The notes under the pieces are model-generated. The model did no database searches and was not told the DNA's origin. It saw only the letters and a list, made by a program, of their open reading frames with translations. From an uncultured Bacteroidales bacterium (lineage in GTDB: Bacteria; Bacteroidota; Bacteroidia; Bacteroidales; VadinHA17): a DNA stretch of 64,000 bases. The position numbers and the translations under genes were made by a program. Positions 25,946 through 64,000 of the stretch are shown one piece after another (position 1 is the first letter of the stretch; the number at the start of each line of letters is the position of its first letter). Location of the stretch: positions 2,550,053 to 2,614,052 of the forward strand of contig CAWFKI010000005.1 in NCBI GenBank assembly GCA_963816345.1, written 5' to 3'.

Positions 25946-27772
25946 ATGAAAAATCAGCTCAGAAGTTCAAAGACCACCACCGGGAGGAATATGGCAGGGG
26001 CAAGAAGTCTCTGGCGTGCCAACGGTATGAAGCAGGAACAATTCGGAAAGCCTGTCATTGCAATTGTCAACTCATTTACTCAGTTTGTGCCGGGCCATGC
26101 CCATCTTCACGAGATCGGTCAGCTGGTAAAAAAAGAGATAGAAAAGGCAGGATTTTTTGCTGCTGAATTTAATACAATCGCAATTGATGACGGGATTGCC
26201 ATGGGACATGAAGGGATGCTTTATTCCCTTCCGTCCAGGGAACTGATAGCCGACAGCATTGAATATATGTGCAATGCTCACCTTGCGGATGCCATGATAT
26301 GCATAAGCAACTGCGATAAGATTACTCCCGGAATGCTTATGGCAGCAATGAGGCTGAACATTCCTGCGGTATTTGTATCCGGAGGTCCTATGGAAGCAGG
26401 GTTCCGCAATAATAAATATATCGACCTGATAGATGCCATGGTAGCAGCCGCCGATAATTCGGTAAGCGAAAATGACCTGAGCGAAATTGAAAAATTAGCC
26501 TGTCCAACCTGCGGTTCATGCTCCGGCATGTTCACGGCAAACTCCATGAACTGCCTTAATGAGGCGCTTGGCCTGGCCCTTCCCGGAAACGGAACAATAG
26601 TGGCCACACACGCGAACAGGATAAAGCTGTTTGAAAAAGCTGCCGCATTAATTGCCGATATGGCTGACAGATATTATAATAAAGGTGATGCCTCTGTTCT
26701 TCCCAGATCGATAGCCACAAGGGAGGCGTTTATGAATGCAATGTCGCTCGACATAGCGATGGGAGGATCGACAAATACCGTTCTGCATCTTCTGGCCATC
26801 GCAAATGAAGCCGGAGTTGACTTTACAATGAAGGATATCGATGAGCTCTCCAGGAAAATTCCTAATATCTGCAAGGTGGCTCCAAGTTCACAATATCATG
26901 TCCAGGATGTCAACCGTGCGGGAGGCATTCTTGGAATAATGGGAGAACTGGAACGGGCAAACCTTATTAACAGCAAAGTAGGACGAGTGGATTATGCCAC
27001 TCTCCGTGAAGCTGTCTCCGACTGGGATATCATGGGAGGAAAAGCTGTTCAGGAAGCAACAGAAGTATTCCGGAGCGCGCCTGCCATGGAGAAAAACCTG
27101 GTCATGGGATCGCAGAATACAAGTTATAAAGAGCTTGATACCGACAGGGAAAAAGGGTGTATCAGGTCCGTAACCCACGCATATAATCAGGACGGAGGTC
27201 TTGCAGTGCTGTATGGGAATATCGCCAAAAAAGGATGCATTGTCAAAACTGCAGGTATAGAAGAATCATTGTTTAAATTCTCAGGTGGTGCGGTGATTTT
27301 TGAATCACAGGAAGATGCTGTTGAGGGAATTCTTAACGGTACCGTAAAAGCCGGGGATGTTGTTGTAATTAAATACGAAGGTCCCAAAGGTGGTCCCGGA
27401 ATGCAGGAAATGCTATACCCTACCTCCTATCTGAAGTCAATGGGTCTTGACAAGAAATGTGCCCTTATAACTGACGGACGCTTTTCAGGCGGTACATCAG
27501 GCCTTTCTATCGGTCACGTCTCCCCGGAAGCTGCCTCGGGAGGAGAGCTTGCACTGATCAGAACAGGCGACAGGATTGAAATAGATATTACGGGAAGAAA
27601 GATAAATGTTATGTTATCTGAGGATGAACTTGATTCCAGAAGGGCTGCTGAATCATCCAAAGGGAACAGGGCATACAAACCTGAAAAACGTAACCGTATT
27701 ATCTCCTCTGCACTTAAAGCTTATGCAAAATATGTAAGTTCAGCAGACCTGGGAGCTATAAGGATGATATAG
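25946..27772 (+). CDS. ilvD: Dihydroxy-acid dehydratase
   Basis: 608 aa with IlvD/Edd family motifs throughout ([37 protein letters not shown]). Confidence 0.95.
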
Positions 27773-27840
27773 CACGGGGCACAGGGCACAGAGCACAGGG
27801 CACAGAGCACAGAGCAAAGAGCACAGACTAGAGCATAGAG
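27772..27840. repeat. Tandem heptanucleotide array (GCACAGR)n
   Basis: GCACGGG GCACAGG GCACAGA GCACAGG GCACAGA GCACAGA GCAAAGA GCACAGA followed by a degenerate tail. It starts on the last base of the ilvD stop codon. Confidence 0.9.
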
Positions 27841-45053: not shown

Positions 45054-45153
45054 GCGAAGTCTCCGCTAAGCGAAGTCCCGCTAAGCGAAGTCTCCAGACT
45101 TCGCTTTATCTATTTAATCCTGCCCCGCTAAGCGAAGTCTCCAGACTTCGCTT
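45047..45153. repeat. CCGCTAAGCGAAGTCT direct repeats ending in two copies of the palindrome AAGCGAAGTCTCCAGACTTCGCTT
   Basis: Three tandem 15-16-nt units start inside the last hisIE codons; the gene's TAA is the TAA of the first unit. Perfect palindromes lie at 45083-45106 and 45130-45153. They probably also act as the his operon terminator hairpins. Confidence 0.85.
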
Positions 45154-46243: not shown

Positions 46244-47420
46244 ACCGGCTGACCGTACAGGCAATGTACAGGAATACTATTTTTCGCAAAAACTTGCCCA
46301 GATAGACAGGATGCGGAAAGAAGGAGCTGACGTCATTAATCTGGGAATCGGCAGCCCCGACCAGGCTCCATCGGAAAGCACCATCGCGGCCCTGACTGCT
46401 TATGCAGGAAAACCGACATCACATGGCTATCAGAGTTATACAGGAGTATATGCCCTCAGAAAGGCATTTGCTGAGTGGTATAAGAAATACTTTCATGTTG
46501 ATCTTAACCCCGAGAATGAGATACTACCTTTAATGGGCAGTAAGGAGGGAATAATGCATGTCAGCATGGCGTTTGTAAATCCGGGCGATGAGGTGCTGAT
46601 ACCCGATCCCGGATATCCCACCTACTCATCTGTTACAAATCTTGTCGGGGGTATTCCGAGGAAATACGACCTGACGGAGGAGAATGGCTGGCTTCCCGAT
46701 CTCGAAGCCCTTGAAAACAGCGACCTGAGCAGGGTCAAGGTGATGTGGGTAAACTATCCCAACATGCCTACCGGGACCAAAGGATCAGTGCAGCTCTTCG
46801 AAAAGCTTGTATCATTTTCAATGAAACATGGAATACTACTTTGCAATGACAATCCTTACAGCTTCATTTTAAATAAGGATTATCACAGTATTCTTCAGGT
46901 TGATGGCGCCATGGAAACAGCCCTGGAGATGAATTCGCTTAGTAAATCACAGAATATGGCAGGCTGGCGCATAGGAATGGTGGCAGGCCACAGAGAGTAT
47001 ATAAAGGAGGTGCTGAAAGTAAAAAGCAATATGGACTCAGGCATGTTCCTGCCGATGCAGATGGCTGCTGTTGAAGCGCTTAACAACCCTGACTCATGGT
47101 ATGACCAGGTAAATGAAGTATATATTAAACGGAGGAAGAGAGTTGAAGAAATAATGGACCTGCTTAAATGCAGGTATGACAAAAGCCAGGCCGGATTGTT
47201 TGTCTGGGGGCGAATACCGGATAATATCAGGAGCTGCGAGGATTTCACTTCGGAAATACTTGAAAAATCACATGTATTTATCACACCAGGGTTTATCTTT
47301 GGGAAAAATGGCGAAAGATATATCCGCATCTCACTCTGCGCTACAGAGGAAAGACTGACGGAGGCGCGGGAGAGGATTATATCAATAGATTCCCCTCCCT
47401 GGAGGGGGGGTGGGTTCTAG
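46233..47420 (+). CDS. Class I/II PLP-dependent aminotransferase (probable aromatic/prephenate aminotransferase)
   Basis: Start at ATG 46233 (MKVKPADR), overlapping the pheA 3' end. Motifs: NPNNPTG-like region and SLSKSQNMAGWRIG (PLP lysine). The last roughly 9 codons (SPPWRGGGF*) are encoded by a copy of the intergenic repeat. Confidence 0.85.
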   Translation: MKVKPADRTGNVQEYYFSQKLAQIDRMRKEGADVINLGIGSPDQAPSESTIAALTAYAGKPTSHGYQSYTGVYALRKAFAEWYKKYFHVDLNPENEILPLMGSKEGIMHVSMAFVNPGDEVLIPDPGYPTYSSVTNLVGGIPRKYDLTEENGWLPDLEALENSDLSRVKVMWVNYPNMPTGTKGSVQLFEKLVSFSMKHGILLCNDNPYSFILNKDYHSILQVDGAMETALEMNSLSKSQNMAGWRIGMVAGHREYIKEVLKVKSNMDSGMFLPMQMAAVEALNNPDSWYDQVNEVYIKRRKRVEEIMDLLKCRYDKSQAGLFVWGRIPDNIRSCEDFTSEILEKSHVFITPGFIFGKNGERYIRISLCATEERLTEARERIISIDSPPWRGGGF

Positions 47421-47741
47421 GAAGAAGCACAGGGCTCAGGGCACGGGGCTCAGGCATTGCCAGCCGTAGCTTTCTTCGACCTCCGTAGCTTTAGCGGAGG
47501 AGGTAGCGAAGGCTGGGCACAGAGCAGTAAGCAGTACTTCAGCAGGATCCCCTCCTGGGAGGGGGCAGGGGTGGGTTCCAGGAAGGGGCACAGGGCACAG
47601 AGCACAGAGCACAGGCATTGCCAGCTGTAGCTTTCTTCGACCTCCGTAGCTTTAGCGGAGGAGGTAGCGGAGGCTGGGCACAGAGCAGTAAGCAGTACTT
47701 CAGCAGGATCCCCTCCTGGGAGGGGCAGGGGTGGGTTTAAA
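47391..47741. repeat. Tandem duplication of a roughly 160-bp composite unit (partial + 2 full copies)
   Basis: Units at about 47421-47581 and 47582-47741 are near-identical. Each contains (GCACAGG)4, a nested hairpin region CCAGCC...CCTCCG TAGCTTTAG CGGAGG...GGCTGG, GCAGTAAGCAGTACTTCAGC, and CCCCTCCTGGGAGGGG(G)CAGGGGTGGGTT. The terminal motif also occurs at 47391-47420. Confidence 0.9.
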
Positions 47742-56477: not shown

Positions 56478-56955
56478 AAGCGAAGTCTGGAGACTTCGCT
56501 TAACAACTTCGCTTAGCAACTTCGCTTAGCGACCCGCTGGCGCCGATTTGTAATTGGTGCCATATCGATTTCCGCTGGCGCCGATTTGTAATCGGTGCCA
56601 TAAACAAAATTACATAAATATTAAATAGGCACGGATTGCAAAGCGCTGCCCGCTGGCAGACCCCCAAACCCCCTAAAGGGGGCTTTTTTATCGTGATCTA
56701 CAAGTTTTCAGTATTACGCGAAGTGTCATACCACGACACCGCTGTGTCAGCCAAGCTCAGCGAAGGCTGATTCTGAATACCGGATACCGGGTTGGCACGG
56801 ATTGCAAATCTGCGCCATAATCGGTGTCATAAATGAAAATTATATTGTAAGTGATGCGGATAACTGCACTGATGCTAATTGGCACGGATTGTAAATCCGC
56901 GCCAGCGCAAGGGAGGAGGGGCCTCCGCTGGCGCCGATTTGCAATCGGTGCCATA
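56478..56955. repeat. Dense repeat/hairpin field
   Basis: Palindrome AAGCGAAGTCTGGAGACTTCGCTT at 56478-56501. AACTTCGCTTAGC x2 at 56505-56530. CCGCTGGCGCCGATTTGYAATYGGTGCCATA x3 at 56534-56564, 56572-56602 and 56925-56955. The inverted relative GGCACGGATTGYAAA...GCC x3 at 56628-56650, 56794-56816 and 56881-56907. Confidence 0.9.
56669..56689 (+). terminator. Candidate intrinsic terminator
   Basis: CCCCC-TAAA-GGGGG followed by C and T6. The short 5-bp GC stem makes this only moderately convincing. Confidence 0.4.
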
Positions 56956-56972
56956 GATAAAATATACCATCT

Positions 56973-58048
56973 TTATTTTTTGACAATGAGTACTATTGCA
57001 TCATTTGCATTGATTGTAAATGATTTTCCGGATGGAATTTTACCATATAAATTTTCAGCTATCTTCCAACCCTCCTTCAGTTTCAGGTCTGCAGTACCAT
57101 CTTCATTATTATAATTGATAAGTACTACCACCCGTTCATTATCACTGATACTATGCTCTGTCACACCGATATAAGGATTGTTCTGAGTTAAGACCCTGTC
57201 CTGGATAACATCTTTTGCAACAAGCTTGTATATATTATAGTAAGCCGGCATTCCCATGTCAAAGGCACCGGGGGTATTCGCCAGGTTGCTCTCCAGCGGG
57301 AAGGTAAGCAGGTAACTTTCCCTTGCCATATTGTGAGACCATCAGCGCCGGATCCCCATCAGGCTCTCTCCCCAGCACTTCAAGATCGACAGGAGTTATG
57401 TTGAGCTTTCGTTCAGAGAATGTCTCAAAATTAAGGCTGTCATTCCCGATCCTGGAATTAAAATGCAAAGCTCCGAATACGCCGGATATTAGTCCGGATC
57501 TCTATCCCCATTGGTTCAGTCAGTGTTGGCAGATATACAAAATCAAGGGAAAGATACAGAGTGGCGCCCTGTTTTACTTTGTCAAGTATCCCATACCAGG
57601 AATCTTTAAAAATGGCATACAATCCCTTTACTGAAGGAAGCATATAAACAGCGGCTTCCCTCAGCTCCTTGCCTGATTTCTGGAACTGAATATCAAATCC
57701 GGTGCTTTGCCAGTATAAAGCTGCTGTAAGCCGCTGCCCAGCTGTCCTGTCCTTCCGTCAGAATGCAAACAGCTTCTGTTTTACGTGGAGGAAGTGTTTT
57801 AAAGGGAAGTTTCTCAAGAAAACCGGAGAAATTTTTAAATTCGGCGAGTACCGGCTTGGGAGTTCTGTCTTCTCTTATTAGTCCAGCTGCTGCTCTACTG
57901 CCGAGTAATTATATGGAGGATAATCAAGCTGAGCGATCAAAACCGCACCACCACAACATCCCTTTGCAATCATGTGCCCAGTTTGAAAAAAGTGCCGTCC
58001 GGGCAAAAGCGGCTTTTTCCTTCTCTCCTGCATCATCGGGCCCATCAT
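56973..58048 (-). pseudogene. Degraded glycoside-hydrolase remnant (clan GH-A barrel end + GH42-like middle/C-terminal domains), N-terminal half missing
   Basis: At least six colinear fragments in different frames: ...GMLWWCGFD / QLDYPPYNYSAVEQQ / GLIREDRTPKPVLAEF...AVCILTEGQDSWAAAY / TGFDIQFQKSGKELREAAVYMLPSVKGLY... / 57468-57259 / 57329-56973. The upstream end abuts the repeat module starting about 58049. Confidence 0.6.
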
Positions 58049-58415
58049 CTTTCTTTTTACGCAAAAAGAAAGTACCAAAGAAAATGCGCCGGAAAAGACA
58101 ACCCCACCCTGTTTGTCCGCCTGCTGCACAAGGCCTTAAAGGCGCCACCAAACAGGGTGCGGTTCGCACCTTTTCCGGTTTGCCCTCGCGCCGCTAAAGA
58201 TGATAATTTTGGAAATGCGAATGGACAGGCCACGCCATGGCGTGGCCCTACGACCTCAAACATACAATAATGTAGGGTCATGCCATGGCATGACCCTTTC
58301 AATCGTAATCCAGGCACTTTAAAATCCTTTCCATTTTATGTCATTAGAATCACAATTACGCGAGCACAATTGAAGTTTTCCTCTGCAGGTTGTGTGCTCC
58401 ATGCTTTCCGCTCTC
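58049..58415. repeat. Composite hairpin module, left copy (inverted relative to 61209-61526)
   Basis: The reverse complement of 58181-58300 matches 61279-61398 with about 4 differences in 120 nt. The ends also match (CTTTCTTTTTACGCAAAAAGAAAG; heptamer/GCATGGAG block). The central hairpin differs, and about 75 nt (58303-58375) are extra. Confidence 0.85.
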
Positions 58416-58513
58416 CGCTCTACGCTCAAATCTCAAATCTCCGATTACCGATTACCGATTACCGAATACCTTTTAACCCTGTACTCGGTGCCCTGTGCCC
58501 TGAGCCCTGCGCC
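58404..58513. repeat. Phase-locked mosaic heptanucleotide array (about 15.5 units, four sequence families)
   Basis: On the plus strand: CTTTCCG CTCTCCG CTCTACG CTCAAAT CTCAAAT CTCCGAT TACCGAT TACCGAT TACCGAA TACCTTT TAACCCT GTACTCG GTGCCCT GTGCCCT GAGCCCT GCGCC. The 7-nt register is unbroken, and it starts 3 nt after the dctA stop. Confidence 0.9.
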
Positions 58514-58516
58514 ATA

Positions 58517-59761
58517 TCACCCCATCTCTTTCCTTGCCACGTCCAGATCAATCTCCTTTTCCCATTTTGCAATGACTACCGTTGCAACGGAATTCCCAAT
58601 AAGGTTTGTGATAGCTCTCGCCTCACTCATGAAGCGGTCAATGCCAAGAATTAAAGCAAGCGAGGCAACAGGGATATTTCCAACTGTCGGAAGAAGGGCC
58701 GCAAGAGTTATAAAGCCACTGCCTGTCACCCCGGCAGCGCCCTTGGATACGAGCAGCAGGACAAGCAGCATCGTCACCTGGTGAGTGAGAGTCAAAGGTG
58801 TATTTGTAGCCTGCGCAAGAAATACTGCTGCCATTGTCAGGTAAATTGAAGTGCCGTCGAGATTAAAGGAATATCCTGTGGGAATTACCAGTCCCACAAC
58901 AGATTCCGATACTCCCCCCTTTTGCAGCTTAGCCATCAGACTAGGCAGTGCAGCCTCTGACGACGAAGTGCCAAGCACGATAAGGATCTCTTCCTTTATA
59001 AATCCGAGCACTCTGAAAATATTAAAGCCAGCGTACTTCAGGATACTTCCTAACACAATAAATATGAATAGAATACAAGTTATATAAAACGACAGCATCA
59101 GCTGTCCCAGTGATGCAAGGGAGCCAACTCCGTATTTGCCTATTGTAAATGCCATTGCTCCAAAAGCTCCGACAGGTGCAACTTTCATGATGATATTAAT
59201 TACGGCAAACAGACCGGCTTCAAGAGATTTGATCCCCCTGAGTACAGGCCTGGCTTTTTCGCCTATCCTCGAGAGAGCGATACCGAAGAGAACTGAAAAA
59301 AACAGTATCTGCAGCAGATCGCCATTCGAAAGGGCATTAATAATATTATCAGGTATTATATGAAGCAGGAAGTTCACCACTCCGGTTGTCTTGCTTTGTG
59401 TGACATATGAAGCAACTGCATCGGCATCAAGGGTTGAGGGGTTTACATTCATGCCCGACCCTGGCTTGAGGATATTTATCACCCCAAGGCCGATAATGAG
59501 CGCCAGTGTTGTGATTACTTCAAAATAGATTATTGCTTTGATACCTACCCTTCCAACCTTTTTTATGTCCTGCATACCCGCAATCCCGTTCACTATTGTA
59601 CAGAAAATTACGGGTGCAATCATCATTTTCACAAGCTTGATGAACCCATCGCCCAGCGGCTTCATTTTGACTGCAATTGCCGGCCAGAAGAAACCAATTG
59701 CAATGCCGATCAATATGGCTGTAATAACCTGGGCATATAGACTTTTAAAGATCTTTGGCAT
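58517..59761 (-). CDS. dctA: C4-dicarboxylate/cation symporter (DAACS family)
   Basis: 414 aa, colinear with E. coli DctA: [38 protein letters not shown]. Confidence 0.88.
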
Positions 59762-59870
59762 AATTTGTTCAAGGAATAATATGCTATAATATTAATGAAA
59801 TAAAATTAAACTGTATTTTTTTTTATCAGGAAGACCTGAAGAAACTAACTAAACAGGCGCGGATGTGATG

Positions 59871-59894
59871 AAGCGAAGTCTGGAGACTTCGCTT
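59871..59894. repeat. Palindrome AAGCGAAGTCTGGAGACTTCGCTT (family copy)
   Basis: Perfect 24-nt palindrome in the divergent dctA / URO-D intergenic region. Identical to 56478-56501. Confidence 0.9.
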
Positions 59895-59985
59895 AGCTCG
59901 GGTTAAAAAATATTAATCTGATATTGCCAAATCGTTAATATCTTTAAAACTATCAAAAAATCTGATAAAACGTTAAAAAAGAATC

Positions 59986-61209
59986 ATGAACTCAAGGGAA
60001 AGAATTCTTTCGGCAATAAACCATAAGCAGCCCGACAGGGTACCCATTGACCTCGGCAGTTCAACAGTTACCGGGATATCTGCCATAGCATATAACAAGC
60101 TGAAGCGTCACCTGAACATTGAAAGCAAAACCAGGGTCTTTGATGTGGTGCAACAGCTGGCAAGTATAGATATGGAAATAGTCGGCATGCTGGGTGTTGA
60201 TGCCCTCGATATTAACAGGGTGTCGACTGAAGGCAACGACTGGTATGATGTTGAACTGGCTGACGGAAGCAAAGCACAGTATCCGGCATGGTTCAGACCC
60301 ATTCGGTCAGAAGATGGCTCATGGTATACAAAAGATAATGATGGCCTGGTTCTCTCAAAGATGGCAGCAGGAGCCACATTCTTCGATCAGATGCAATTCC
60401 CCTGGGAAAACGGATATCCTGAGAGTACCTCCACCCTGAAGGAGGATCTGAAGAAGATAAGCTGGGTTGTTCACTCACACGCCTCGAATCTGAACGAGAC
60501 TGAGCTAAGGGAAAAACTTGTGAAACTGAAGAACTCCACCGGCAAGGCCCTTGTAATGTCCGGCGGAGTGAAGCTTCTCGAGCTTGGATTTTTCATCAGG
60601 CGAATGGATAACTTCCTCATGGATCTGATGACGGATGAACCTAAATTATCCGAACTGCTCGATATGCTTGTGGAGATGCACCTGTCAGGACTGGAGAAAA
60701 AATGCCGCAACCTGGGGGATGTCGTTGATGTGATCAGGTTCGGTGACGATCTGGGTATGACATCCGGGCCGTTCATGGACCTGGAAACTTTCCGGAAATT
60801 CCTCAAGCCCAGATACAGGATCCTATGCGATTATGTAAAGAAACACAGCAACATGAAGATCTTCATGCACTCCTGCGGCAGCATAAAACAATTCATCCCC
60901 GACCTGATTGATGTCGGGATTGATATTCTCAACCCGGTGCAGACCAACTGCTACCAGATGGATCCGGTGACCCTCAAGAATGAATTCGGAAAAGATATAA
61001 CCTTCTGGGGAGGAGGAGTTGATACTGCATCAGTTCTGAACAACGGCACTCCTGAAGAGGTACGCGCTGATGTTCTTAAAAGATGCGAGATCCTGTCGGT
61101 TGATGGAGGATTTGTCTTTGCTCCGATTCACAATATCCTTCCTGATGTATCGCCGGAAAATATAATGGCAGCCTATTCTGCCGTGAGGGAGTTCAATGGG
61201 GAGATATGA
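59986..61209 (+). CDS. Uroporphyrinogen-decarboxylase (URO-D/MtaA-CmuA-like) family protein, function unknown
   Basis: 407 aa. The N-terminal MNSRERILSAINHKQPDRVPIDLG and C-terminal FWGGGVD...GGFVFAPIHNI are typical of URO-D-fold proteins. Confidence 0.7.
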   Translation: MNSRERILSAINHKQPDRVPIDLGSSTVTGISAIAYNKLKRHLNIESKTRVFDVVQQLASIDMEIVGMLGVDALDINRVSTEGNDWYDVELADGSKAQYPAWFRPIRSEDGSWYTKDNDGLVLSKMAAGATFFDQMQFPWENGYPESTSTLKEDLKKISWVVHSHASNLNETELREKLVKLKNSTGKALVMSGGVKLLELGFFIRRMDNFLMDLMTDEPKLSELLDMLVEMHLSGLEKKCRNLGDVVDVIRFGDDLGMTSGPFMDLETFRKFLKPRYRILCDYVKKHSNMKIFMHSCGSIKQFIPDLIDVGIDILNPVQTNCYQMDPVTLKNEFGKDITFWGGGVDTASVLNNGTPEEVRADVLKRCEILSVDGGFVFAPIHNILPDVSPENIMAAYSAVREFNGEI

Positions 61210-61526
61210 GCGTAGAGCGTAGAGCGTAGAGCGTAGAGCGAAGAGCATGGAGAGCACAACCTACAGAGGAGAACGGTTAAAGGGGTCATGCCATGGCATG
61301 ACCCTACATAATCGTATGTTTGAGGTCGTAGGGCCACGCCATGGCGTGGCCTGTCCATTCGCATTTCCAAAATTATCATCTTTAGCGGCGCGAGGGCAAA
61401 CCCCAAAAAGGTGTGAAATTAATGGCTTTGGGCCCTGGTTCGGGAGGGCCCGTGGGCAACAAAGCCATTAATTTTTCTTTTTGGGCGCCTTTTCTTTGGT
61501 ACTTTCTTTTTGCGTAAAAAGAAAGT
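61209..61526. repeat. Composite hairpin module, right copy (inverted relative to 58049-58415)
   Basis: Begins with (AGCGTAG)4 AGCGAAG AGCATGG on the stop codon of the URO-D gene. It then has palindromes GGGTCATGCCATGGCATGACCC (61283-61304) and GGCCACGCCATGGCGTGGCC (61332-61351), a 15-bp-arm hairpin AAATTAATGGCTTTG...CAAAGCCATTAATTT, and ACTTTCTTTTTGCGTAAAAAGAAAGT. Confidence 0.85.
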
Positions 61527-61580
61527 ACAATAAAAAAGTCCCCTTTAGGGGATTTAGGGGTGATAAAAGGGTCTCACATC

Positions 61581-62636
61581 TCACACCCGTCTTCGTATCT
61601 CTTTAACTGCCTCAATCATGGCAAGAAATCCATCGACAGGAATATAACCCGGAATTGAGTTACCGGATCCAAGCCCGTATCCGTTTGCCATCCGGCGATA
61701 AGCTGTTCCCTGCTTTAATACAGTCTGAAATACATCCTCAGGTTTACTCAGTATTAAAAGGTTAAGATCAAAACCGCCGAATAGTCCGATCCTGCCGGAA
61801 TATCTCTCAATCCATTCACTGAAAGGAGCAATCTGATCCTCATTTGAATGCTTTGCATCAATCCCGAGAGCAATGAGATCATCCATCAGCGGGAAGATCC
61901 TCCCGCAGCTGTGAAGGAGGAATTTCTTTCCGGAGGAATGGACAAGGTCAATCACACGACTGTACTGAGGGAAAATATGCTGCCTCACTATATCGGGATC
62001 AAGCATTGTGGAGGTCTTATGACCAAGGTCGTCTCCCATCCTGTAAAAGACAAAAAGATCATCATAATTCTCAATAACCCAGCTCCACAATTCCACCCAC
62101 AGGTCCCCGATCCTTACAAACAGATCCCTGAACAGCTCCGGATCAAGGCACTGCATAATGCATAAAGGTTCAAACCCGACAATATCCTGGCTTGCCTCAA
62201 ATATGCCATAGCCGCACCCTCCGTAAGCCTTCATGCCGGCAGGCAGCGTCTTCCTGATCGCCTCAAAATGAGGGGTATAAGTCTGTTTGAAGATTGCAGG
62301 AATTTCATCCCACGGATATTTCTCAAAATCATCCCTGGTCTGGACCGGTCCTTTCATACCTCCCATTATTGCACCATGACCGGGTAATATATCACATATT
62401 GCAGCCTCAAAATCAAACCCGTCGTATGTCATCTCTTTCCAGAAGCCGATGATCTTCCGGTAGTATCCAATTAATTCATCCGCAGTAAGATTCTCCGGAC
62501 TCAGCTCCTCGCCTGCCGCTTTTGATATAAACGGCGCATCTATATGATGCTCATAAAGCGGAAGACGACCGGGCTTCTGGTTTTGCAGCACCCGGAGAAG
62601 GTTGGTGTAATCGGGTTGGAAAGTAGTCTGTTTCAT
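61581..62636 (-). CDS. Uroporphyrinogen-decarboxylase (URO-D) family protein, function unknown
   Basis: 351 aa, a distant paralog of 59986-61209. Motifs: KPGRLPLYEH, HSCGRIFPLMDDLIALGIDA, GLFGGFD. Confidence 0.65.
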   Translation of the reverse strand: MKQTTFQPDYTNLLRVLQNQKPGRLPLYEHHIDAPFISKAAGEELSPENLTADELIGYYRKIIGFWKEMTYDGFDFEAAICDILPGHGAIMGGMKGPVQTRDDFEKYPWDEIPAIFKQTYTPHFEAIRKTLPAGMKAYGGCGYGIFEASQDIVGFEPLCIMQCLDPELFRDLFVRIGDLWVELWSWVIENYDDLFVFYRMGDDLGHKTSTMLDPDIVRQHIFPQYSRVIDLVHSSGKKFLLHSCGRIFPLMDDLIALGIDAKHSNEDQIAPFSEWIERYSGRIGLFGGFDLNLLILSKPEDVFQTVLKQGTAYRRMANGYGLGSGNSIPGYIPVDGFLAMIEAVKEIRRRV

Positions 62637-62845: not shown

Positions 62846-62922
62846 CTGATTACTGATTACCGATTACCGATTACCGATTACCGATTACCGATTACCGATT
62901 ACTGATTACCGATTACCGCTCT
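62846..62922. repeat. Tandem heptanucleotide array (CYGATTA)10, = (GGTAATC)n in gene sense
   Basis: CTGATTA x2, CCGATTA x6, CTGATTA, CCGATTA, CCGCTCT. The last units encode the final codons (…SGNR) and the TAA stop (62906-62908) of the GH38 gene. Confidence 0.92.
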
Positions 62923-64000
62923 CCGGTGTAATGCCAATCGTCACAATCTCATTCGGCCTGATCTTCACCTGAAGTGTCCTGCCGTTAACAACAGGAGCAG
63001 CTGCCCCGGTAAGAGGCATTTCCAACAGGTTGAGCCTCCGGGCAGAACTCATACTGACAGGTACGGTAAGATTTATAAGAGTCTCCCTGCCTTCAGTCTC
63101 ACAAAGCCTGATTATCAGTTCATTTCCATCCTCAGACTTTTTGATCCCTGTCATTACAACCCCCGGATTATCGATCGCAATAAATGAATTCTCTTCTGGA
63201 CGCGTTGCATGTTCCTTCCCAAAAGCAAGCGAAGGGGGCTCGGCTGCATACACAGGAATATTGAAATCTTCGCCTTCGGCCCATACACCGTTTTTCCAGT
63301 CACCGCTGTGAGGGAATAATGAATAGCTTATAATGTATTTGCCGAGATTCGGATAGATATCCGGATTACCAGCCGCCCTCATAAGAGTAATCCTGAGCTC
63401 ACCATTATGATATGAGTGCCCGTATTTGGTTTTGTTTAAAAGAGCAATACCAACCTTCCCGTCAGTTACATCGACCCATTTCTGTGCCGGAACCTCCTGT
63501 CCGTCATTAGTTTCACCTGATATCCCGTAAGCACCCTGATGCCTCTGATAAGGAGGCGCCTCTTTACCATTCATCATACCGTCGATTGGTCTCTGAACAA
63601 CATTGAAGGGAACCTGGGAGTAAAATCCCGGATTTTCGAGTGAAAGCGGGAAGACCGCCCTCAACATAGGAGAATCCGTTGAATCGCTTCCCGTTTCAAG
63701 CCAGTGCACCTCCATATCATAATCGATACGCGGATAGGAACGGTAGAGATATGTACGTTCAATAAATCTTGATTTACCCCATGTTTTTACTGTCTCCACA
63801 CAGGCCCTGACCGGTCCGTCCTCCACAACTTTCACACCGGCAACATTTGTAACATCTTCCTGCCCTGTATATTTATTAATGACCCACGACTTCATCTCTC
63901 CCTTTTTATCCTCGAGCGAGATCCGCAGGGTATTAAGCCGGCCTCCCTGCCTTACATACTCTTTACTGGTCCGTTTATCAAAGAGGCTGACAATGCCTCC
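62906..64000 (-). CDS. GH38 alpha-mannosidase, C-terminal part (gene continues beyond the right edge)
   Basis: The frame is open from 64000 (GGIVSLFDKRTSKEYV...). WVDVTDGKVGIALLNKTKYGHSYHNGELRITLMRAAGNPD is the typical GH38 C-terminal-domain pattern. Confidence 0.75.
   Translation of the reverse strand, partial: GGIVSLFDKRTSKEYVRQGGRLNTLRISLEDKKGEMKSWVINKYTGQEDVTNVAGVKVVEDGPVRACVETVKTWGKSRFIERTYLYRSYPRIDYDMEVHWLETGSDSTDSPMLRAVFPLSLENPGFYSQVPFNVVQRPIDGMMNGKEAPPYQRHQGAYGISGETNDGQEVPAQKWVDVTDGKVGIALLNKTKYGHSYHNGELRITLMRAAGNPDIYPNLGKYIISYSLFPHSGDWKNGVWAEGEDFNIPVYAAEPPSLAFGKEHATRPEENSFIAIDNPGVVMTGIKKSEDGNELIIRLCETEGRETLINLTVPVSMSSARRLNLLEMPLTGAAAPVVNGRTLQVKIRPNEIVTIGITPESGNR

Follow-up and report, generated by a model that had tools for sequence, protein, structure and literature searches.

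Long inverted repeats on either side of bacterial genes raise a simple question; are they the ends of something that moved, or did they gather around genes that were already in place? We ask this of a locus in an uncultured Bacteroidales bacterium of the lineage VadinHA17 (assembly GCA_963816345.1), in which two noncoding modules, inverted relative to each other, flank a dctA-like sodium:dicarboxylate symporter gene and a divergently transcribed gene of the URO-D family. The window analyzed is a stretch of 64,000 nucleotides (nt) of contig CAWFKI010000005.1 (positions 2,550,053 to 2,614,052); all gene and module coordinates are positions within this window, and L-numbers (L001, L002, L123, L153 and so on) denote the comparison loci. 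An earlier note on this DNA had offered two readings of the modules, a shared 3' cassette or terminator and the termini of a mobilized or recombined segment. Each ∼340-bp module is a mosaic of four separately distributed kinds of repeat, called here parts A, B, C and D, and dctA and URO-D are long-term residents of the locus, not cargo. On balance, the modules are probably paralogous copies of a 3' intergenic non-coding cassette, built from selfish or structural repeats behind the two resident genes.

Extent and layout of the modules

The two modules are real and somewhat larger than first described. The core inverted match reported in the earlier note (58181-58300 with 61279-61398) is recovered by a repeat finder as 141 nt at 94% complementarity (58171-58311 against 61268-61408), and the common outer and inner ends it described are recovered as well, the former as 53 nt at 92% (58049-58101 against 61473-61525) and the latter, consisting of heptamers and GCATGGAG..CAGAGGA, as 67 nt at 81% (58375-58441 against 61208-61274). 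Three motifs occur at only two sites each in the 64 kb, one per module, with 0 matches expected from 100 shuffles: the 22-nt palindrome GGGTCATGCCATGGCATGACCC, the 24-nt AT hairpin CTTTCTTTTTACGCAAAAAGAAAG and the inner motif. The differing central hairpins, which are unalignable, and the ∼70-75 extra nt of the left copy are both visible in a pairwise alignment. Also as described, the modules lie directly 3' of genes and have identical polarity relative to them, each starting at the stop codon of its co-oriented gene (dctA on the left, URO-D on the right).

What had been missed is that the inverted repeat reaches further outward. Immediately beyond the outer end of the right module, at 61530-61551(-), stands a terminator-like hairpin, CCCCTAAAGGGGRCTTTTTTAT, which recurs on the left at 56670-56691(+), where 1357 bp separate it from the left module. 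In L001, an independently assembled conspecific locus, the left end is the exact mirror of the right end of the window, and thus the outer hairpin belongs to the full inverted repeat; in the window itself, the left module is split by a 1357-bp segment (56692-58048) that separates the outer hairpin from the remainder. No direct repeat or target-site duplication is present at 58049/61525, at the extended ends in L001 or at either boundary of the segment. Searches of Rfam with the region, the related loci and short sub-regions returned only spurious hairpin matches of the microRNA-precursor type, far below the gathering threshold. A 24-mer from the core, TTATCATCTTTAGCGGCGCGAGGG, has 0 matches in metagenome contigs because it crosses a junction between parts B and C that is specific to this locus.

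A REP doublet of a known kind

Part B is a double palindrome of ∼72 nt, about a fifth of each module. Its unit runs GTAGGGnCATGCCATGGCATGn'CCCTAC, 20-25 variable nt, GTAGGGnCACGCCATGGCGTGn'CCCTAC, with the hairpin consensus GTAGGGnCAYGCCATGGCRTGn'CCCTAC. A degenerate search of contigs, one genome per species, located B at at least 118 loci, almost all of them in uncultured Bacteroidales/Bacteroidota metagenome-assembled genomes (MAGs) and several per genome; a profile search gave 90 full doublets among the matches listed. In the hairpins of those listed matches, palindromy is kept by compensatory change (n and n' are complementary in 165 of 170, and CAYG and CRTG are matched in 167 of 170), and GTA...TAC flanks are present in 86 of the 170, with close variants in most others. 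Among the same matches, 74 of 88 units lie outside open reading frames (ORFs) of at least 150 amino acids (aa), and orientation relative to genes has no bias across the family. The window holds two copies of B, both partly degenerate, with GTAG/CTAC retained only on the inner sides of the two hairpins.

Which system would such a doublet belong to? Repetitive extragenic palindromic (REP) elements are copied by REP-associated tyrosine transposases (RAYTs), HUH/Y1 enzymes that act through single-stranded DNA hairpins, as is established for the family generally. Five B loci in MAGs related to the window's genome (L022, L044, L049, L060 and L070) contain RAYT-like ORFs with NHVH...WQ motifs and a doublet inside the ORF, where it is translated in frame between the HUH and Tyr motifs (GPCHGMAL...VGTRHGVS). 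These ORFs match the NCBIfam family REP_Tyr_transpos at E∼1e-13; because the match falls into two stretches, its score of 51-53 bits stays short of the curated cut-off of 80 bits. The match to Pfam Y1_Tnp is weak. In L070, a second RAYT-like ORF lies directly upstream (2291-2854). Insertion of a REP within tnpAREP is a hallmark of TnpAREP subclass 2.4, a group with many members in Bacteroidetes and Cyanobacteria (PMC6006769), and GTAG-tagged REPs and REP dimers are described in a further paper (PMC3733652). Since RAYT-like genes carry the doublet in this manner and such tagged dimers are already known, B is, judged by its sequence, part of the known REP/RAYT system.

The resemblance to REP/REPIN elements and their RAYTs (subclass 2.4, RAYT group 4) is extensive: the stem is palindromic and preceded by a 5' GTAG, the spacer within doublets measures 20-25 nt, extragenic copies are numerous in each genome and often touch stop codons, and in the related MAGs the RAYT-like gene has a doublet inside it. 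Some features differ. The REPs here are perfect palindromes of 28 nt with a tag at either end (GTAG...CTAC), the halves of B differ systematically, CATG versus CACG, and the RAYT-like genes were seen in the related MAGs and not in the window.

A structured, hairpin-ended repeat family

Part C is a structured arm that ends in the AT hairpin, and a search with the hairpin pattern found it at 57 metagenome loci in very different organisms; it is also present in Ralstonia, Burkholderia and Caballeronia replicons. Common to all 57 loci is the end GGCGCC-TTTTCTTT-n4-CTTTCTTTTTGCGYAAAAAGAAAG, with n4' after the hairpin. Bacteroidota-type copies open with AGCGGCGCGAGGGCAAACC and continue into a long stem whose sequence varies; one or the other of two conserved apical domains caps this stem, and GGCGCC-TTTTCTTT with the hairpin makes up the end. 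The stems covary, with compensatory change in 17/44 and 13/46 pairs for the two arm types, and 93% of cells are paired as compared with 46-52% when the partner is slid; 0 of 500 shuffles reach the observed score.

The two arm types also account for the two unalignable central hairpins in the window. In L137, both types stand tail to tail, 42 nt apart, as one complete element, and the window's left hairpin is of one type and its right hairpin of the other (arm type A). Complete members with inverted arms are L137, L177 (80% over 688 nt) and L181, whereas each window copy is a solo arm without an internal terminal inverted repeat. GC-rich relatives are elements of 365-720 nt with long inverted arms and many copies, and complete forms in general are long palindromes with multiple near-identical copies per genome. 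Megaplasmids of Ralstonia solanacearum hold a ∼450-nt version in 2-6 copies, and one Ralstonia site upstream of cbiE exists in three states among strains: the whole two-armed element of ∼450 nt, one AT hairpin flanked by the outer inverted repeats, and an empty spacer of 22 nt. Comparison of filled and empty Ralstonia sites gives no clean, simple target-site duplication. A tandem CCAACACCAAC array adjoins the Ralstonia element.

One orthologous site, the interval between a gene for a 126-aa START-like protein and a permease-like gene, retains C in several species (L132, L137, L139, L142, L157 and L173). Some of these species have arm type A there and others have the second type; L137 has both, and in L157 the form is minimal and lacks the big hairpin. 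Across the family, the orientation of C relative to genes is unbiased, and it is opposite beside queA in L145 and L156. In the window's own species, C is co-oriented with the upstream gene in all three cases.

Prokaryotic MITEs (miniature inverted-repeat transposable elements) such as Correia/NEMIS and ERIC (reviewed in PMC10969869) are likewise non-coding, intergenic and of comparable size (150-720 nt for C), and like them the complete C elements have long inverted arms, multiple near-identical copies per genome and stable stem-loops. C differs from them in several respects; no target-site duplication was found at the window copies or in the Ralstonia comparison and no parent insertion sequence in the 57 loci, its arms differ in their conserved apical domain, solo arms are common, and an end motif of ∼45 nt is conserved across phyla while the remainder has diverged. 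None of the 57 loci has a transposase beside C, and the flanks are housekeeping genes only. We considered an end of a TnpB/omega-RNA or IS200/IS605 element and discarded it, as Pfam finds no tnpA/tnpB/iscB-type domains near the GC-rich or Bacteroidota copies. Rfam holds no match for C, and literature searches with its sequence strings gave nothing relevant. As a family, C appears undescribed; it is of a known kind, that of MITE- or REP-like structured repeats, with an unusually conserved end, and its Ralstonia copies may correspond to a MITE that has been reported in avrA.

Outer hairpins and heptamer arrays

Part D, the outer hairpin, fits the terminator component of the earlier note, with the refinement that it serves the incoming gene. 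In a terminator scan it has the GC-rich hairpin and U-run of an intrinsic terminator at 61552-61539(-) and at 56669-56682(+), each for the convergent gene that arrives from outside, whereas the AT hairpin is followed on the arm's own strand by an A-rich tract and does not have this pattern. D also occurs alone, in L002 and at L153:1-20, and its outer sequence follows the arm in L153 and L154 as it does in the window.

Part A consists of heptamer arrays, which Tandem Repeats Finder (TRF) places at -12 to +10 nt from the stop codons of five window genes. The URO-D stop codon is followed by an array in four species, each with its own heptamer: GAGCGTA in the window, GGTTCAA in L002, GAGATGT in L123 and GGTnCTk in L121. 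In other words, the position of the array after the URO-D stop persists while its sequence turns over. Heptamer tandem repeats have been described in the intergenic DNA of Cyanobacteria, Beggiatoaceae and some Bacteroidetes (STRR, TAACTGA; PMC4679880). The arrays here are alike in being short runs of 7-nt units in intergenic DNA but differ in two ways; they are 3' and start from stop codons, whereas TAACTGA lies mostly just upstream of start codons, and many heptamers are used, differing between species at one site. Elsewhere in the window, a 161-nt unit repeated 2.1 times (47407-47737) has heptamers around the palindromic element GCCAGCCGTAGCTTT...GGAGGTAGCGAAGGCTGG. Related copies lie in other intergenic regions (L002 4830-4900 and 6440-6500, L153 640-700 and L154 1-50), and the unit looks like another dispersed repeat family.

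As assemblies, the modules recall the bacterial interspersed mosaic elements (BIMEs) of enterobacteria, which sit after genes, between convergent or tandem genes, and for which effects on mRNA stability and termination have been proposed. Both are extragenic mosaics of REPs and other short motifs (for BIMEs, PMC3733652); the components differ, with heptamer arrays and a 150-nt structured arm here, as does the host phylum. Table 1 lists the coordinates.

Table 1. Positions of the module parts, the enclosed genes and the features compared with them
Feature	Position	Strand	Evidence
Part D, terminator-like hairpin CCCCCAAACCCCCTAAAGGGGG and T-run; outer piece of left module, terminator of 374-aa gene	56650..56691	+	Terminator scan; match to 61530-61551(-)
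Strain-specific 1357-bp segment, GH5-like pseudogene and 3' flank with REP-like GGCRCCGATTDCAAATCGGCGCC units	56692..58048	-	Missing in L001
Part C arm, left type, apical loop GGCGCCTTTAAGGCCTTGTGCAGCAGGCG, end TTTTCTTTGGTA and AT hairpin (58049-58072)	58049..58200	-	nhmmer, 128 bits; covariation
27-nt linker and part B, GTAG-type REP doublet, palindromes 58227-58249 and 58275-58297	58201..58300	-	Repeat and motif searches
∼75 nt unique to left copy, then inner motif GCATGGAGCACACAACCTGCAGAGGA (58379-58404)	58301..58404	-	Alignment, motif search
Part A, heptamer arrays GCTCTCC/GCTCTAC, CTCAAAT, CCGATTA, CCCTGTG; end 4 nt from dctA stop codon	58403..58516	-	TRF
dctA-like sodium:dicarboxylate symporter gene	58517..59761	-	Pfam SDF, 2e-114
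URO-D-family gene; one source labels a homologue 'methyltransferase'	59986..61209	+	Pfam URO-D
Part A, heptamer array GAGCGTA x5.6 overlapping URO-D stop codon, then inner motif (61245-61270)	61208..61270	+	TRF, motif search
Part B, GTAG-type REP doublet, palindromes 61283-61305 and 61331-61353, and 27-nt linker	61279..61379	+	Repeat and motif searches
Part C arm, type A, apical GGCCCTGGTTCGGGAGGGCCC, end TTTTCTTTGGTAC and AT hairpin (61502-61525)	61380..61528	+	nhmmer, 128 bits; covariation
Part D, outer hairpin TCCCCTAAAGGGGA and T-run; terminator-like for convergent URO-D paralogue (61581-62636)	61529..61565	-	Terminator scan
Heptamer arrays in window	27771-27827, 47430-47454, 58477-58513, 61208-61246, 62848-62918		
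URO-D-stop arrays in relatives	L002 6332-6440; L123 9224-9260; L121 5236-5275		
RAYT-like ORFs	L070 1602-2294; L022 2537-3289; L060 26-910; L044 1-399; L049 2631-3014	-; -; +; -; +	
Ralstonia site compared	L181 2625-3050 (T110); L183 (UW386); L184 (T11)		

The enclosed genes are residents

Were dctA and URO-D brought in between the modules? Synteny with relatives argues against it. In L123, a relative at ∼78% nucleotide identity whose URO-D protein shares 84% aa identity with that of the window, the gene order is permease, 374-aa gene, PhyH, GH43, SDF/dctA(-), URO-D(+), a small four-helix-bundle gene, URO-D paralogues and GH38; dctA and URO-D stand between the same outer neighbors in the same order and orientation, with no module, and the ∼79% nucleotide identity of the two genes to their window counterparts equals that of the flanking genes. 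In L121 and L122, URO-D and its paralogue are convergent neighbors with no module between them. In L002, from a sister species with 90% nucleotide identity, URO-D directly follows the 374-aa gene, and dctA, both modules and the pseudogene of the 1357-bp segment are absent. Taken together, these loci show that dctA and URO-D did not arrive as a unit and that the modules were added in the lineage of the window. Set against L002 alone, dctA and the left module look like an inserted piece; this reading was rejected because L123 shows dctA to be ancestral.

The proposal in the earlier note that the modules are termini of a mobilized two-gene segment therefore finds no support. The two genes do not come and go as a unit; L123 has both without modules, L002 has URO-D without dctA or modules, and L001 differs from the window only by the 1357-bp segment. 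The ends lack a target-site duplication, and Pfam detects no transposase or recombinase gene among the window ORFs inside or near the dctA/URO-D unit. Exact-protein look-ups with four window proteins gave no match. A composite transposon would likewise have inverted repeated sequences around genes, but in the present case transposase and target-site duplication are both lacking, the repeats at the flanks are non-coding, and relatives without the repeats keep the enclosed genes in synteny.

The surroundings show several further changes. At the position of the right module, L123 (9224-9745) has a 124-aa gene of the 23S-rRNA-IVP/bAvd four-helix-bundle type, flanked by inverted heptamer arrays (ATGTGAG on one side and the reverse complement of ATATGAG on the other). 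The window's GH38 ORF (62906-63895) covers only the C-terminal 329 aa of a protein that has 954-976 aa in L002 and L123, which may reflect truncation, a frameshift or a cut by the end of the window. Among the URO-D paralogues, the window has the 351-aa gene (61581-62636) and not the 412-aa gene, L002 has the reverse, and L121 and L123 have both. This is a gene neighborhood that is losing genes lineage by lineage. A small gene for a DUF559 protein (Vsr-like endonuclease domain) lies near GH38 in L001 (10648-11040) and L002 (8392-8772), at differing positions.

A strain-level indel within the left module

The left module abuts a truncated glycosidase gene, and the earlier note took this junction as a sign of insertion or rearrangement. 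The truncation is real, and so is the rearrangement, which is a strain-level indel. The GH5-like remnant (56973-58048(-)) retains the C-terminal ∼370 aa with several frameshifts and stops in three-frame translation, and its homologues are GH5-like or beta-mannanase proteins of ∼645 aa, the best of which is 71% identical and matches in its C-terminal part only; Pfam gives no match to the remnant. Apart from the absence of 56692-58048, the L001 contig (ENA ERZ25039489; ∼98% identical and indel-noisy) and the window are collinear. Its junction reads ...GGGGGCTTTTTTAT-TGTA-CTTTCTTTTTACGC..., with the outer hairpin D joined to the AT hairpin via TGTA. In the window, the breakpoint lies 3 bp into the AT hairpin stem, such that the outermost 3 bp of the 58049-58072 stem are lost. 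A hairpin homologous to D follows the 374-aa gene in L002.

Two other accounts of this junction were set aside. The first, orthology between the remnant and the GH43 gene that comes after dctA in L123, was rejected for want of a tblastx match. The second, a recombination hot spot at TTAT|, was suggested by the divergence of the window, L001 and L002 at one and the same nucleotide and is largely explained away because TTAT is the end of the repeated module D, which also stands alone at L153:1-20.

The REP-like palindrome GGCRCCGATTDCAAATCGGCGCC has seven matches between the 374-aa gene and the pseudogene (56539-56599 and 56794-56952), and its translated units are the 'GADLQSVP / APIANRRQ' type peptides of spurious ORFs in the 56539-56952 region. 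A 24-nt hairpin, AAGCGAAGTCTGGAGACTTCGCTT, has four copies; two copies in direct orientation bracket a stretch that is absent from L002, with tandem ACTTCGCTTAGCA units alongside (45083-45153, 56478-56501, 59871-59894 and 56493-56530 for hairpins and units together).

How the modules may have been assembled

How, then, do the two copies relate to each other and to copies elsewhere? Both arms have near-identical solo counterparts at unrelated loci, neither of which has B. The left arm matches that of L154, located next to nuo-like genes, at 149 of 154 aligned positions (∼97-99%; 99.3% by blastn), and the right arm shares 96.7% identity with that of L153, which sits behind a co-oriented 932-aa gene with heptamers between. 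Comparison of the left and right modules gives a patchwork: 71 of 75 positions are identical in the B doublet, 49 of 50 in the linker and base of C and 41 of 42 at the 3' end of C, as compared with 54 of 67 in the heptamers and inner motif and 50 of 93 (with gaps) in the apical region. Judging from the sequences, the likeliest source of this mosaic identity is recombination or gene conversion acting on inverted copies that lie close together and have different, unalignable cores.

We envisage that solo C arms with heptamers would have settled behind two divergently transcribed genes, and the inverted, heads-out geometry would arise because each arm is co-oriented with one of the two. A REP doublet B with its flanks would then have entered one copy, after which gene conversion between the nearby inverted copies could have homogenized everything except the apical hairpin. 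By analogy with REP elements in general, B would be copied by a RAYT via single-stranded hairpins, and C would spread as well. The stacked hairpins may give stable 3' structures to the mRNAs and insulate convergent transcription, and the AT hairpin may be a fragile point, prone to gain or loss of sequence of the sort seen with the GH5 pseudogene segment. The reading of the earlier note that the modules are a shared 3' cassette fits this account; both modules and the third copy, L153, lie 3' of a co-oriented gene, with heptamers from the stop codon.

Several observations weigh against the cassette reading. Only two module copies exist within the 64-kb window. The two arms are of different types and oriented as in a complete element, which two independent solo arms would give by chance in ∼1 in 2 to 1 in 8 cases. 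The gene conversion is read from the mosaic pattern rather than observed, no enzyme for C was found near its copies, and the co-orientation with genes in the window's species rests on three cases in families whose orientation is otherwise unbiased for both B and C.

Alternative explanations

Could C and the stacked hairpins instead be mainly a functional RNA, a structured 3' untranslated region or small-RNA module that is co-transcribed, stabilizes or terminates the transcript and has spread by selection? We think this unlikely, although it has real attractions. The fold of arm type A is strand-specific, with 22 G-U pairs versus 0 A-C, conserved loops sit on the covarying stems of C, and the right module has a far more stable fold than shuffled sequence does (z = -6.4); furthermore, C is co-oriented with the upstream gene in the three cases from the window's species and has been retained at the START-like/permease site in several others. 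On the other hand, the second arm type shows 10 G-U versus 8 A-C, the arm's own strand has no U-run after the AT hairpin, and Rfam has no match. The varying orientation in other species, including the reversal at queA between L145 and L156, also speaks against an RNA, and palindromic complete forms in multiple near-identical copies per genome are typical of mobile DNA.

A more far-reaching idea starts from the conserved end of C. The family could be a previously undescribed cross-phylum class of structured, hairpin-ended elements with two different arms, in which TTTTCTTT, a 4-5-nt linker and CTTTCTTTTT/AAAAAGAAAG would form a possible intramolecular pyrimidine-motif triplex or a triple binding site; such elements would be moved or processed by a new enzyme, and their arms would be able to act apart and bracket host genes. 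We regard this as doubtful and offer it as speculation.

More improbable still is that 58049-61525 is one cargo-carrying element whose ends are the two arms, with dctA and URO-D captured between them. Both arm types are indeed present and face outward, the very arrangement of the complete elements L137, L177 and L181, and the ∼340 nt of arm, B and heptamers resembles the ∼330-nt arms of GC-rich complete elements. However, L123 has both genes between both outer neighbors, in the same order and orientation, with no arm; URO-D is in place in L002, L121 and L122; target-site duplication and transposase are missing here as well; solo arms are the rule in this species (L153 and L154); and divergent genes with co-oriented 3' arms yield the heads-out geometry automatically. 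Finally, an invertible segment that flips the dctA/URO-D pair is hardly credible, for despite ∼320 nt of 92-98% inverted homology at a spacing of 2.8-3.4 kb, L001, the only independent conspecific assembly, has the same orientation, no recombinase gene lies nearby, and promoter-gene relations would stay unchanged because the whole divergent pair would flip.

Implications

The cassette of repeats behind resident genes, which we continue to prefer, has a practical consequence for those who annotate these Bacteroidales genomes. Where long inverted repeats surround genes, they should not be taken for the ends of a transposon; such repeats are stacks of REP-like and MITE-like elements that accumulate behind stop codons. 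The locus adds an example of REP/RAYT subclass 2.4 from environmental Bacteroidales MAGs and defines a structured repeat family whose end motif is conserved from Bacteroidota to Ralstonia. It also indicates that hairpins of this kind mark the breakpoints at which strains gain and lose DNA.

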